Of a stretch of DNA of 64,000 nt, positions 23,221 to 30,503 are shown one piece after another (positions within the stretch are counted from its first letter, which is position 1; every line of letters starts with the position of its first letter). The stretch covers positions 78,239 to 142,238 of the forward strand of contig CAVUXJ010000007.1 in the NCBI GenBank assembly GCA_963745495.1. The letters run 5' to 3'. Below the pieces are notes generated by a model, which saw nothing but the letters and a program-made list of their open reading frames with translations, ran no database searches and was not told the DNA's origin. Position numbers and translations under genes: made by a program. The stretch is from an uncultured Acidobacteriota bacterium (GTDB taxonomy: Bacteria > Acidobacteriota > Vicinamibacteria > Vicinamibacterales > CAVVIG01).

Positions 23221-23491
23221 CAGCGGCGTCCCGGGTAGCGTGACGGGGTAGCGGTTTGCCTCGACGAGTGCTCGGAACGGCACGATCGCGACCGACGGAG
23301 GCGAGAAATCTCGAATGATTCCGAGCGCTGGCAGGATTTGAAGCACCGGCCACTCGGTTCCGAGCACGGAAACTCGACGCAGAAACCGAGTGACCCAGCC
23401 GGACTGAAGTTCTGCGAATTCTCTTAAGGAAAATTAGAAAATTGGTCGGGGCGAGAGGATTCGAACCTCCGACCCCTCGGTCCCGAACCGA
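23221..23491. repeat. direct repeat copy 1 (~270 nt), ending in a tRNA-Pro 3' fragment
   Basis: Aligns by eye over its full length with 30208-30475 in the same orientation, at about 90% identity with small indels. Confidence 0.9.
23443..23491 (-). pseudogene. tRNA-Pro 3' fragment (49 nt; att-like scar)
   Basis: TGGTCGGGGCGAGAGGATTCGAACCTCCGACCCCTCGGTCCCGAACCGA matches the 3' 49 nt of the intact tRNA at 30427-30503 (CCA end through the anticodon loop) with 1 mismatch, then diverges. Confidence 0.85.
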
Positions 23492-23880
23492 CTTACCGCA
23501 ACGACTTTCTGGAATGATTTCGCGAATATCGGAGCACGGGTAGCGACAGGGTAGCAATTTTCGGCGGTGCACAGCCGCCAATCAGGCACTTCCCTGTTCT
23601 GCCTACTGCCATCACGGATGACCTGCTACTCGGGCGTTCGCATCCGAAGGGAAACACGATGAGGATCCCCGACCCGCCGGATCGACGCGGCGGCGTTCCG
23701 ATTGTGCTTGTCTTCCCTACTGGTAGTCTGGAAGAACAGTCGCCGGGGAACTTGACGAACGCGACAACGGTGCTTCGCGCCCGCCCGCTCACCCAACAGG
23801 CAGCCGGGGGAACTCCGCCACCGTCACATGGCAGCGCAGCAATCAGGCGGCATAGCGGCTCGAACGGCAGTGGCCGGGCG

Positions 23881-24258
23881 TTAACCTCGACGACTCTCCC
23901 GCTGCAGCTCACGGAGCAGCCCTCGCGTGTTGCCGAGATGATTGTTAAAGATCCGACGGGCGACATCGAGCAACTCGCCGACGAGTGGGTCACGGAGCGT
24001 GTATCGCACCGACGATCCTTCCTTCTGCGCGGAGACGATGCCTTGGTTGCGGAGCACGGCCAACTGCTGCGAGACGATCGGCTGCTCGAGGGTCAATGCC
24101 TCCTGCAGTTCCTGCACCGTACGTCCCCCTCGCACGAGGATCTCCAGCATTCGGATCCTCGTGGGATGGGCCAAGGCTCGGAAAAACTGCACCTTGAATG
24201 TCTGAAGCTCACCGGCGATCATCGGTTCACCGGCCTTCCGACCTCGCTGTTGAGGCAT
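23881..24258 (-). CDS. ArsR/SmtB-family transcriptional regulator (no cysteines)
   Basis: ORF track, 125 aa. FFRALAHPTRIRMLEILVRGGRTVQELQEALTLEQPIVSQQLAVLRNQGIV is a winged HTH. It lies divergent from dabA. Confidence 0.85.
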   Translation of the reverse strand: MPQQRGRKAGEPMIAGELQTFKVQFFRALAHPTRIRMLEILVRGGRTVQELQEALTLEQPIVSQQLAVLRNQGIVSAQKEGSSVRYTLRDPLVGELLDVARRIFNNHLGNTRGLLRELQRESRRG

Positions 24259-24303
24259 CAGTAATCTATCATATTAGAATATCTCTATACCCTCAAGCCT
24301 TCG
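24259..24303. promoter_or_regulatory. divergent arsR/dabA control region with AT-rich palindromes
   Basis: The 45-nt intergenic region reads ..TAATCTATCATATTAGAATATCTCTATACC.. It contains ATATT-AG-AATAT (24271-24282) and nested TCTA/TAGA half-sites. It is strikingly AT-rich in a GC-rich context. Confidence 0.4.
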
Positions 24304-28674: not shown

Positions 28675-30133
28675 CGCTCGCCTCTGGCTGGTCGCTCTGG
28701 CGGCCCTGCCCGCTCTCGTGATCGGCGCATCGTTTCTCCGTGTTGACGTAGAGCGCCTCCGGCGCCTCGCCGTCGTGTCCGCGGTGGCCATGTTGCTGGC
28801 GGCGCTCGTCATCGCTGTTTCGCCACCCCTGCGCGCCCTCTCGATCCGCAGTGCCGCGCTCAGCTGGGTTCCGGGCGGAGAGGCCATCCTTCGCATCGAC
28901 ACGCTCTCGGCCGTCCTCTTGCCGTTCGCGTCTGGTCTGTGGCTGCTCACCGTCGCGGTGACGCCGCGCGCCGCGCTCGATCGGGGCGGATTGCGCCGAA
29001 CCGCCCTGGCGACCCTCATCACGCTCGCATCCTTTCTTACCGAGAGCGCGGTCGTGCTGCTGCTCCTGTCGGTGGCTTCCGTCTGGACGTTTTTGTCCGC
29101 GCTGGCGGACCCGGCGCATCAGTATCAGCGCCGCGTCGTGGCGGCTTATCTGGGTTTCTCGACGTTGCTGTTTGGCCTTGGGGTCGTGCTGCTCATCGGT
29201 CCGGGCGTGCAGAACACGACGATCGAAACAGCCGGCATGTGGCTGATTGTGATCGCGGCGCTCGTGCGAAAAGGGATCGTCCCCTTCCACGCATGGGTGC
29301 CGGAGGTATTCGATCAAGGACGGCTGGGCCCGGCCATTCTGTTCAGCGCACCTCAGATAGGCGCGTATATGACTGTCGTGCTGATTGTGCCGCGCGCCTC
29401 TCCCGACATGTTGCGGATGATTGCCATCCTGGCGCTCGGGACCGCCGTCTACGGCGCAGCACTGGCGCTCGTCCAGACCAGTGCACGCCGGGCGTGCGGG
29501 TACCTGTTCATGAGCCAGTCCGCGCTCGTGATGGCGGGCCTCGACTGCACCAGCGCGAGCGCGCTGGCGGGCGGGCTGCTCGTCTGGCTGTCGGCCGGGT
29601 TGGCGTTTGCCGGACTCGCCCGCTGCGTCCTCGTCCTCGAGACGCGCCGCGGGCGGCTCGATCTGACCACGTATCACGGTGGGTATGAGCGCATGCCGCT
29701 GCTGGCGATCAGCTTCCTCGCCATGGGGCTGGCGTGCACCGGCTTCCCGGGCACGCTCGGGTTCGTAGGTCAGGAACTCCTGGTGGACGGCGCGGTCGAC
29801 GTTTTTCCTGTGATGGGGTTCGCCGTCGTTCTTGCGTCTGCGCTGACCGGCCTTGCCGTGCTTCGGATGTACTTTTCGCTCTTTTGCGGCCGCTCGGATC
29901 CGCTGGCCCATTCAGGGCTGCGGTTTGGGTTGACGCGCCGCGAAGCGTGGACGTTCGTGGCGCTCGTGATCGCGCTTGTCGGCTTCGGTGTCGCGCCTCG
30001 CCCGCTCGTCGATTCCCGGTTCGCGGCCAGCGACGAGATTCTGCGGCTGCGACGAGTGCGCATGCTGGGCGAGCAGAAGGCTATTTCAGGGGCACAGTTG
30101 AACACGGGCCTTCGGTCCCAATCCCAACCCTGA
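28667..30133 (+). CDS. second antiporter-like (NuoM/NuoN/MnhD-type, PF00361) membrane subunit
   Basis: ORF track, 488 aa, with an 8-nt overlap with dabB (ATGAGTGA). VRKGIVPFHAWVPEVFDQG, multi-TM throughout, and GFPGTLGFVGQELL near the C-terminus. Confidence 0.75.
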   Translation: MSDARLWLVALAALPALVIGASFLRVDVERLRRLAVVSAVAMLLAALVIAVSPPLRALSIRSAALSWVPGGEAILRIDTLSAVLLPFASGLWLLTVAVTPRAALDRGGLRRTALATLITLASFLTESAVVLLLLSVASVWTFLSALADPAHQYQRRVVAAYLGFSTLLFGLGVVLLIGPGVQNTTIETAGMWLIVIAALVRKGIVPFHAWVPEVFDQGRLGPAILFSAPQIGAYMTVVLIVPRASPDMLRMIAILALGTAVYGAALALVQTSARRACGYLFMSQSALVMAGLDCTSASALAGGLLVWLSAGLAFAGLARCVLVLETRRGRLDLTTYHGGYERMPLLAISFLAMGLACTGFPGTLGFVGQELLVDGAVDVFPVMGFAVVLASALTGLAVLRMYFSLFCGRSDPLAHSGLRFGLTRREAWTFVALVIALVGFGVAPRPLVDSRFAASDEILRLRRVRMLGEQKAISGAQLNTGLRSQSQP

Positions 30134-30207
30134 TAATCCGCCACGCGGACTCTGATGCACCGATTCGCGCGGACCACCTCGATGATTCATCGTCGCGACA
30201 AGACGAT

Positions 30208-30475
30208 CAGTGGCGTCCCGGGTAGCGTGACGGGGTAGCGTTTTGCCTCGACGAGTGCCTGGAACGGCATGATCGCAACTGACGGAGGCGAGAAATCTCG
30301 AATGATTCCGACGGCCGGCTGGATTTGACGCACCGGCCACTCGGTTCCGAGCACGGAAAGTCGAAGCAGAAACCGAGTGACCCGCCAGACTAAGTTCTGC
30401 GGATTCTCTGAGGAAAATCAGGAAATTGGTCGGGGCGAGAGGATTTGAACCTCCGACCCCTCGGTCCCGAACCGA
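30208..30475. repeat. direct repeat copy 2 (~270 nt), overlapping the 3' part of intact tRNA-Pro
   Basis: See 23221-23491. Confidence 0.9.
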
Positions 30476-30503
30476 GTGCTCTACCAGGCTGAGCCACGCC
30501 CCG
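30427..30503 (-). tRNA. tRNA-Pro (anticodon CGG)
   Basis: Reverse complement: CGGGGCG TG GCTC AGCCTGGTA GAGC A CTCGG TTCGGGA CCGAG GGGTC GGAGG TTCAAAT CCTCT CGCCCCG A CCA. This is a 77-nt cloverleaf with an encoded CCA and G37. Confidence 0.9.

Follow-up and report, generated by a model that had tools for sequence, protein, structure and literature searches.

The stretch of DNA analysed here (the window) comprises 64,000 nucleotides of contig CAVUXJ010000007.1 (positions 78,239 to 142,238; assembly GCA_963745495.1) from an uncultured bacterium of the Vicinamibacterales, Acidobacteriota, and its organization around a tRNA-Pro(CGG) gene is best explained by two integrative elements, neither of them autonomous, that lie in tandem at the 3' end of that gene. 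Read leftwards from the intact tRNA, the array would consist of element A (a P arm, dabB2-dabB-dabA-arsR and a distal arm), a displaced 49-nt tRNA fragment, and element B (a P arm, a type IV restriction helicase and a ParDE-like toxin-antitoxin pair), the distal arm and fragment of which were apparently lost at position 19328. Both elements are probably cassettes resembling cis-mobilizable elements (CIMEs), inserted by a tyrosine integrase acting in trans. The insertion of element A relative to an empty site, the architecture of the junctions, and the retention of arm motifs across about 100 independent junctions were demonstrated. Elements A and B belong to a large, apparently undescribed family of cassettes without a recombinase of their own. 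The coordinates of all features are collected in Table 1.

A repeat search within the window revealed two copies of a sequence in the same orientation (23221-23491 and 30208-30475), in agreement with an earlier note on this DNA, made from the letters alone, which had described a direct repeat of about 270 bp. The copies matched in three blocks, namely 23221-23396 vs. 30208-30383 (176 nt, 92% identity), 23407-23432 vs. 30392-30417 (85%), and 23427-23491 vs. 30411-30475 (95%). Their start-to-start spacing was 6984-6987 nt, differing by 1-3 nt between blocks, which indicates a few 1-3-nt indels between the copies. Aligned with MAFFT, they formed a single unbroken alignment with an abrupt end at 23491/30475. 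The intact tRNA-Pro(CGG) on the right was detected by ARAGORN and supported by Rfam (64.5 bits), which found no other RNA family over 22800-31000, including the rest of the repeat. The left copy contained just the 3' 49 nt of the tRNA, with one mismatch, as had been noticed earlier (the mismatch is located in the T-loop), and it began 8 nt past the stop codon of the helicase open reading frame (ORF) at 23213, also as described. A 35-nt core pattern had two sites in the window, one in each repeat copy (0.00 expected by chance), and no additional copy of the core, P arm or distal arm was found anywhere else in it.

Further copies of the core, which the earlier note had proposed to look for, were sought by scanning one genome per species with the 49-nt sequence. 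The scan recovered 118 loci, nearly all from Vicinamibacterales/Acidobacteriota (compared genome loci and metagenome contigs are labelled L001-L229), and 106 of the 121 core matches were intact tRNAs. At 14 loci besides the window a displaced fragment was present, ending at the same base as window 23491. This end point lies just inside the 5' strand of the anticodon stem, and the 49-nt block therefore spans the anticodon stem-loop; an identity block covering the anticodon stem-loop is said to be the pattern that Williams gave in 2002 for tyrosine integrases. To the right of the tRNA, surE and the genes beyond it (an MFS transporter gene and a radical SAM gene) were syntenic with tRNA-Pro in dozens of genomes at 68-82% identity, and these genes represent the fixed core flank of the tRNA.

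L056, a related Vicinamibacterales metagenome-assembled genome (MAG), matched the window over 19328-23491 at 95.9% identity. In L056, the helicase block and the left-copy P arm run directly into an intact tRNA, followed by surE. This locus lacks the DAB cassette, and the window thus shows a clean 6.98-kb insertion. The earlier note had proposed that an island without an integrase entered tRNA-Pro by site-specific insertion and left the duplicated 3' end of the tRNA as its scar, and had suggested a search for tRNA-Pro followed directly by the helicase-side flank; L056 (96% over 19328-23491) is such an empty site and supports the proposal. A second pair of occupied and empty sites was provided by L047 (occupied) and by L053 and L076 (empty): the sequence outside the fragment of L047 was the native flank that abuts the intact tRNA in L053 (96%) and L076 (92%). 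The idea, given in the same note as one that would count against the island, that all relatives carry the identical arrangement with no empty-site variant is contradicted by L056 and L053.

These loci also indicated to which partner each copy of the repeat belongs. The 220 nt next to the tRNA in L056 were 93.2% identical to the left copy vs. 90.9% to the right copy; the left copy is thus the orthologue of the arm that abuts the tRNA in L056. On sequence grounds, the left copy belongs to the helicase element and the right copy to the DAB element, so that the earlier view of the copies as homologous flanks of different origin is confirmed. The possibility that the P arm is the native sequence downstream of the tRNA was ruled out by L017, L109 and the comparison of L047 with L053. 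In L017 and L109, the P arm was located solely beside the intact tRNA, and the sequence outside the fragment was unrelated to it. Because these outer flanks are not P-like and the outer flank of L047 is native, the P arm is the property of the element and not of the chromosome.

An alternative explanation is that unequal crossing-over or slippage copied the region downstream of the tRNA, and that the DAB cassette arrived by an unrelated route. The two P arms of the window were indeed 92% alike, vs. 73-80% to most P arms of the family, and an integrase was not present. However, the left copy ends exactly at the family-wide boundary of the 49-nt core, a canonical distal arm, not present in the region upstream of the tRNA itself, comes after the fragment, and the insertion is a clean 6.98 kb relative to L056. 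Local duplication is largely refuted by the empty site, the arm comparison and the junction survey, and its probability is considered very small indeed.

The length of the repeat, about 220 nt beyond the 3' end of the tRNA, is real, whereas its earlier description as an over-long att core does not hold. The repeat consists of the 49-nt core and an element-borne P arm of about 220 nt, and it is seen twice because two tandem elements each bring a related P arm. On the far side of the displaced fragment, a distal arm of about 70 nt contained motif 1 (CGAATGATT) and motif 2 (GGGTAGCnnCnGGGTAGCG), both of which also occur in the P arm. The doubled GGGTAGC(N4-6)GGGTAGC of motif 2 occurred three times in the window (0.00 expected), at 23233 and 30220 on the outer ends of the P arms and at 23538 in the distal arm of element A. 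Motif 1 was located between the core and the GGGTAGC double on either side, and the copies of both motifs were directly oriented in both arms. Alignment of 17 P arms revealed three conserved parts, i.e., the GGGTAGC double, AAATCTCGAAYGATT, and a tRNA-like pseudo-core composed of GGATTTGAAGC..CTCGGTT, a variable stretch of about 27 nt, and AACCGAGTGACC. The pseudo-core (23334-23395 and 30321-30382) corresponds to a part resembling the T-arm of tRNA-Pro plus the anticodon stem (CTCGGTT...AACCGAG) with an expanded loop.

The same architecture was widespread. Soil metagenomes were scanned for a core ending at the window-like position with one GGGTAGC 44-64 nt away; this search imposed just one GGGTAGC, and left the second GGGTAGC and CGAATGATT free. 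The fragment-plus-arm junction was recovered from 93 contigs, and several genomes contained it as well. Nearly all 93 contigs had the order core, about 20 nt, CGAATGATT and GGGTAGC double, a few with degenerate copies, and at least about 60% of them continued with a GCCTTCGCCG-like block after the double. The median pairwise identity of 77 distinct arms was 58%, yet the motif blocks were kept in at least 85% of these sequences. Ordered and oriented motifs flanking a core resemble the arm-type binding sites of lambda- or P4-like integrases, and may by analogy have the same role. Motif 2 as a mere toxin-antitoxin operator was set aside, as it occurs in the arm of element A, which has no toxin-antitoxin genes, and at the cargo-side ends of P arms. 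The 35-nt core had 0 matches in IMG/VR; one match to the arm motif in that collection (L218) was AT-rich and without tRNA or core, and was attributed to chance. In one metagenome contig (L184), two fragment-plus-arm junctions were found in inverted orientation 3.4 kb apart (1104-1189, minus strand; 4563-4648, plus strand), which may reflect an inversion between att sites.

Junctions in which a P arm, a fragment and a second arm follow each other were common in independent short-read contigs (L211, L133, L121, L167, and L160). This finding bears on the explanation that the tandem is unreal, and that an L056-like strain and a DAB-only strain, each with a real element, were joined by the assembler across the core and P arm. 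Many conserved genes of the window are apparently frameshifted, which is typical of error-prone long-read MAGs: dabA and the N-terminus of the helicase were affected, surE had three changes of reading frame relative to the L166 orthologue, the MFS gene was split (31527-32962), and the UPF0182 gene was a 122-aa piece (40432-40800). In addition, the right flank was just 82% identical to L056, vs. 96% for the helicase block. On the other hand, the difference between the repeat copies is about 8%, either copy passes without a break into its own flank, the tandem junctions are found in independent short-read contigs, and arrays also occur on a 3.3-Mb contig. A chimera is therefore regarded as improbable. 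The frameshifts suggest long-read consensus indel errors rather than genuine decay. Assembly artefacts may thus account for some of the small indels that distinguish the repeat copies, but not for the substitutions of about 8%.

Element A (6.98 kb) contains arsR-dabA-dabB-dabB2 between att sites. Both ends bear the core and both arms are present, and thus attL and attR were kept. Pfam confirmed the gene content reported earlier for the sequence between the repeat copies, i.e., an ArsR regulator, DabA and two antiporter-like proteins of PF00361, and no others. DAB inorganic-carbon pumps, reportedly described by Desmarais et al. in 2019, combine a DabA of PF10070 with a DabB of PF00361. The window likewise has dabA (PF10070) followed by an antiporter-like dabB (PF00361), an operon seen in six contexts, and is predicted to encode a CO2/bicarbonate-uptake system. 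It differs from those pumps by the second PF00361 subunit, the divergent arsR, the att-bounded element, and the frameshift of dabA as assembled. The closest DabA homologues (98-80% identity) came from Vicinamibacterales MAGs and soil metagenomes, and homologues of about 1000 aa covered 85% of the 959-aa ORF of the window. The dabA gene had one extra nucleotide at 26758 compared with both L001 and L002, which is either a real frameshift or an assembly error; the gene was not called a pseudogene because similar shifts in surE and other genes suggest consensus indel errors. In every Vicinamibacterales DAB locus seen, dabB2 was found after dabB, so that these operons (the window, L001, L002, and L214-L216) contained two PF00361 genes after dabA, not one. 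The divergent arsR occurred in most of them (among others L001, L002, and L216), and not in L214 or L215.

The DAB cassette itself had a range of neighbours. Homology at the DNA level to L001 (97%) and L002 (94%) spanned just 23880-30171, i.e., from the arsR stop codon to 38 nt beyond dabB2. The flanks of the cassette in these two loci were wholly different from the window, no flanking repeats were found around it there, and the neighbours differed in all six contexts seen (including L214, L215, and L216/L217). Traces of the islands were nevertheless present at several of these loci. In L216, a 45-nt tRNA-Pro fragment was located 68 nt past dabB2, preceded by the motif-1-like GGATGAATTTCGCG; in L001, arsR was immediately preceded by a toxin gene of which the 3' end remains and by the degraded beginning of a P arm; and L214 had toxin-antitoxin homologues 4-5 kb downstream of the cassette. 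The DAB cassette has therefore been linked with this att system in several lineages. The window contains the sole copy seen with both att sites intact. Within element A, the distal arm was 89% identical to that of L153 over 23437-23594, although the cargo of L153 differs, and of the spacer between the arm and arsR just 23817-23880 was common to the DAB loci L216 and L217. Two side observations concern the cassette. Its identity to L001 over 23880-30171 was mosaic, stretches of 250 nt at 99-100% alternating with others at 90-96%, which suggests recombination among DAB cassette alleles. ARAGORN also reported a 94-nt 'tRNA-Tyr' at 25869-25962 and a 'tRNA-Cys' in homologues (L001 11566-11659, L214, L215, and L216); the former is a false positive within dabA, recurring at a conserved coding position in the homologues.

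Element B (about 4.2 kb, 19328-23442) contains a ParDE-like toxin-antitoxin pair and a type IV restriction helicase. The earlier note had deduced that at least two cargo blocks accreted at this tRNA; a second block exists, whereas the extent given for it, 12.5-23.2 kb, was too large. The helicase is predicted to be a type IV methyl-directed restriction enzyme, and its N-terminus was frameshifted near 20215-20300 relative to the L150 orthologue. The toxin had 600 homologous protein clusters, many named ParE by the JGI, and the antitoxin-like gene was kept beside the arm in many members of the family. The distal end of element B lacked the expected arm motifs and the displaced tRNA fragment, so that just the proximal att site was kept. 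The inner ends of family arms matched the window solely at 19328-19354, homology to L056, L045, L017 and L150 began at 19328-19331, and no att remnant was found left of 19328 in the window.

Complete siblings of element B were available for comparison. L109 (4.4 kb) consisted of a perfect 49-nt fragment, an arm of about 65 nt, a module of about 0.6 kb corresponding to window 19328-19944 (the toxin-antitoxin pair), the helicase, a 205-nt P arm, and the tRNA. The metagenome contig L150 (4.2 kb) had the same structure, and the 3.3-Mb contig L229 contained the same helicase element between a fragment and a P arm with the tRNA. As further observations, the L229 array was 5.7 kb long with core copies at both bounds, adjoined surE, and contained a BrnT/BrnA toxin-antitoxin pair (14439-14983) between the helicase and the P arm with the tRNA. 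L056 was cut (at about 5240) within about 7 nt of window position 19328, yet the left flanks were unrelated; the shared cut could mark another hot spot of recombination. Outside both elements, in the 12-19 kb mosaic, an orphan terS (13994-14461, minus strand; phrog_4044, E=8.9e-33; Pfam Sf6_terminase) and an Abi_alpha / PDC-S47 gene (15292-16044, plus strand) may stem from a phage satellite or prophage; neither an att remnant nor an integrase was found near them.

The 14 segments bounded by core copies were 0.6-9.5 kb long and contained toxin-antitoxin pairs, single defence genes or metabolic genes. The annotated segments of 3-4.4 kb (L017, L045, L109, and L150) had a toxin-antitoxin pair plus one large gene, and the large cargo genes encoded a type IV restriction helicase, a TOTE AEP-helicase-DUF559 protein (E=6.6e-95), and a Schlafen-group-3 helicase (E=9.2e-79). 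A 9.5-kb element in L166 harbored genes for a TonB-like outer-membrane protein, a Rieske protein, a beta-propeller, an ABC ATPase, and a LuxR regulator. Among the best 25 of the 69 Pfam families in 136 interior metagenome ORFs were ResIII (15), DEAD (14), DUF559 (10), AEP-TOTE (7), PLDc_2 (5), PIN (3), McrBC (2), EVE (2), and nSTAND3 (2). Segments of 0.65-1.7 kb bounded by tRNA-Pro core copies were seen in addition (L023 113-1595, L072 4468-5162, L111, and L054), of which L023 and L111 apparently contained just small toxin-antitoxin-like genes. The arms of L023 and L072 had no GGGTAGC double, which suggests that the core also serves other families of elements.

No recombinase was detected by Pfam among the major ORFs of the window, and a tblastn search of the window with a P4-type integrase had no match, which confirms the earlier remark that the window has no integrase. 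The missing integrase is the rule for a large family and not a peculiarity of this locus. None of the 14 core-bounded segments had an integrase, and there was no recombinase among the best 25 of the 69 Pfam families in the 136 interior ORFs, where a single occurrence could escape. In 16 toxin-gene contexts of up to 10 kb on each side, PF00589 was absent from the recorded Pfam hits, some genes at contig ends excepted. No integrase-bearing relative with the same arms was present among the 93 metagenome contigs, 118 tRNA-Pro loci and 16 toxin contexts, sampled in contigs of at most 20 kb. The only integrase seen was that of L049, P4-like with an arm-binding domain, 3.7 kb from the tRNA-Pro, and with no family arm nearby. 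In a phmmer search against 2,867 ORFs (459 + 2408), its only genuine match was itself, and a tyrosine-recombinase box pattern found no integrase besides it. Its ORF has an N-terminal extension that resembles translated tRNA-like sequence recurring in other loci; a phmmer match in L046 (E=4e-4) covered the first ~19 residues alone, i.e., this tRNA-like part, and was discarded. On account of its distance from the tRNA-Pro and this extension, the L049 integrase was treated as part of an unrelated island. Integrase-sized ORFs beside arms (L153, L168, L170, L151, L208, L183, and L205) were not recombinases according to inspection and Pfam.

Table 1. Features of the tandem array at tRNA-Pro(CGG) (window coordinates)
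Feature	Coordinates	Strand	Basis
Truncated distal end of element B: last ~20 nt of family arm and toxin-antitoxin leader	19328..19423	+	Family arm match at 19328-19354
Antitoxin-like gene of element B, 74 aa	19424..19648	+	No Pfam hit; 4-nt overlap with toxin gene
ParE-like toxin gene of element B, 99 aa	19645..19944	+	PF05016 ParE_toxin, E=1.3e-3, below curated cut-off
Cargo of element B, PLD/HKD-ResIII-DUF3427 helicase	20020..23213	+	Pfam; PADLOC mREase_IV, E=5.7e-268
P arm of element B; motif 2 at 23233-23252, motif 1 at 23306-23325, tRNA-like pseudo-core at 23334-23395	23221..23442	+	Repeat, motif search
Displaced 3' 49 nt of tRNA-Pro, att core copy between elements B and A	23443..23491	-	Repeat search, MAFFT, pattern count
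Distal arm of element A; motif 1 at 23511-23524 (GGAATGATTTCGCG), motif 2 at 23538-23555 (GGGTAGCGACAGGGTAGC)	23492..23560	+	Motif search
Non-coding spacer of element A, arm to arsR stop codon	23561..23880	.	ORFs without Pfam hit
ArsR-family regulator, divergent from dabA	23881..24258	-	HTH_5, E=1e-11
dabA	24304..27310	+	PF10070, E=2e-169
dabB, antiporter-like	27307..28674	+	PF00361 and PF00662; start by analogy with the 455-aa L001 gene
dabB2, second antiporter-like subunit	28667..30133	+	PF00361
P arm of element A; motif 2 at 30220-30239, motif 1 at 30293-30312, pseudo-core at 30321-30382	30208..30426	+	Repeat, motif search, alignment
Intact tRNA-Pro(CGG), attachment target; 3' 49 nt (30427-30475) form the att core	30427..30503	-	ARAGORN, Rfam
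surE, core gene, fixed right flank of tRNA	30574..31359	-	L166 orthologue, PF01975, E=2.9e-58

A mechanism that would account for these observations can be outlined. The circular form of an element would hold an attP-like site composed of the P arm (about 220 nt), the 49-nt core and the distal arm (about 70 nt). Recombination with attB (native flank, core, and the 5' half of the tRNA) would generate the order native flank, fragment, arm, cargo, P arm and tRNA, and a second integration into the rebuilt tRNA would leave an internal junction of the P arm of the first element, a fragment and the arm of the second, as at 23221-23560. Element A would thus have entered the tRNA of an L056-like ancestor, in which element B was already present, by recombination through the core; the tRNA would have been rebuilt from the DNA of element A, and its old 3' end displaced by 7 kb together with element B. 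The recombinase would be a tyrosine integrase that binds the arms, possibly together with accessory factors, and it would act in trans, being encoded either on a helper element or by a host gene at another genomic site; GGGTAGC and CGAATGATT are candidate binding sites for it.

Several points weigh against this reading. A recombinase was found nowhere in the data searched, and the catalytic step is consequently deduced from the architecture; outside the window, the screens consisted of one P4-type query and Pfam on subsets, which a divergent recombinase could escape. No circular or excised form was seen. The GC content was 0.61-0.68 across 23-31 kb, vs. about 0.65 in the flanks, and shows no clear step. 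Element A lacks the toxin-antitoxin module typical of the family, it has a 320-nt spacer for which the model does not account, and its junctions (arm-spacer-arsR and dabB2-P arm) were seen in this window alone. Finally, the assembly shows indel errors and could include a chimeric join at the shared core or P arm.

Elements A and B could instead be decayed, immobile leftovers of autonomous islands or satellites from which the integrase was deleted, i.e., CIMEs by decay, the cassettes having spread just by homologous recombination of the flanks or by larger transfers. Such decay is the route given for CIMEs in PMC5704250. The loss of the distal att site of element B at 19328 is in line with it, as are the loss of most of the P arm, the fragment and the arm in L001, the retention of just the 45-nt fragment in L216, and the orphan terS and Abi gene, which suggest a degraded satellite or prophage nearby. 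In contrast, random decay would not be expected to leave the same ordered motifs at about 100 junctions in arms that are otherwise 58% identical, nor a uniform layout, 1.9-4.4 kb in size, in which an arm, a toxin-antitoxin pair, a single cargo gene and a P arm follow each other. Moreover, no integrase-bearing parents were found among the junctions sampled, and the presence/absence polymorphism between close relatives argues for continuing turnover. Immobile relics are thus thought unlikely.

Beyond insertion in trans as such, the elements might form a dedicated system of trans-mobilised cassettes that is anchored at tRNA-Pro(CGG) in soil Vicinamibacterales and functionally comparable to integron arrays, and not decayed islands. 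This is offered tentatively, as a possibility that has somewhat less than an even chance of being correct. A minimal element would then comprise two arms for recombination, a toxin-antitoxin pair for stabilisation and, in most cases, a single cargo gene or operon. Insertion, stacking and exchange of the elements would depend on a recombinase encoded in another part of the host genome or on a rare helper. The pseudo-core of the P arm would form part of the recombination machinery.

In integron arrays, the units are small, most of them have a single gene, all lack a recombinase, and each terminates in a recombination site. An integrase that acts in trans adds them beside a fixed site of the chromosome, and toxin-antitoxin cassettes are frequent among them. 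Unlike integrons, the locus described here has no intI-like gene beside the site, where surE adjoins the tRNA instead. The sites are a tRNA-derived core with long direct-repeat arms and not folded attC hairpins, and the cargo genes seem to come with regulators or promoters of their own. The resemblance to integron arrays may thus be taken as an analogy only.

In mechanism, the closest match is CIMEs together with tandem accretion at tRNA genes. CIMEs are att-bounded elements without integration or transfer genes (Pavlovic et al., 2004, as summarised in PMC5704250), and are described there as occasional decay products of integrative and conjugative or mobilizable elements (ICEs/IMEs) in Firmicutes, mobilised in cis by an adjacent ICE. 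Like these, element A has attL and attR, no integration or transfer genes, and a tandem position at the 3' end of a tRNA. In contrast to CIMEs as described there, the present family has no visible parent or helper (no helper element is present within the window), measures about 2-7 kb, is very numerous and stereotyped in layout, and belongs to a soil acidobacterial order. In the islands recognised by Islander, the tRNA is split, the gene is restored by island sequence, and a displaced 3' fragment marks the far end (PMC4383910). The regenerated tRNA at one end, the displaced 3' fragment as a direct repeat at the other, and the empty sites are shared with such islands, whereas the tyrosine integrase gene inside the island, the anchor feature of such islands and of their detection, is missing here. 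The tycheposons of Prochlorococcus are likewise cargo elements stacked by tRNA genes with partial tRNA copies in between and with nutrient-acquisition or defence cargo, and encode a tyrosine (or serine) recombinase of their own and, in most cases, a replication module (bioRxiv 10.1101/2020.12.28.424599). Unlike tycheposons and satellites resembling phage-inducible chromosomal islands (PICIs), elements A and B have no integrase, replication or packaging module of their own. A literature search of partial coverage, and hence weak evidence of novelty, found nothing on Vicinamibacterales islands or mobile DAB operons. New findings are the tandem-element account of the long repeat, the empty sites, the arm motifs, and a large family that lacks integrases and carries defence and metabolic cargo.

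If this interpretation is correct, abundant soil Acidobacteria would have a route for swapping single defence genes and whole metabolic operons, such as the inorganic-carbon pump of element A, by means of tiny elements that lack a recombinase. As far as is known, island finders anchored on an integrase would miss such elements, and the arm motifs, which have already recovered 93 metagenome contigs, provide a search key for more of them. The family also poses a biochemical question, namely which protein would read GGGTAGC and CGAATGATT and cross over in the anticodon stem-loop of tRNA-Pro. In soil heterotrophs, DAB uptake would then be a trait that depends on the niche and can be exchanged.

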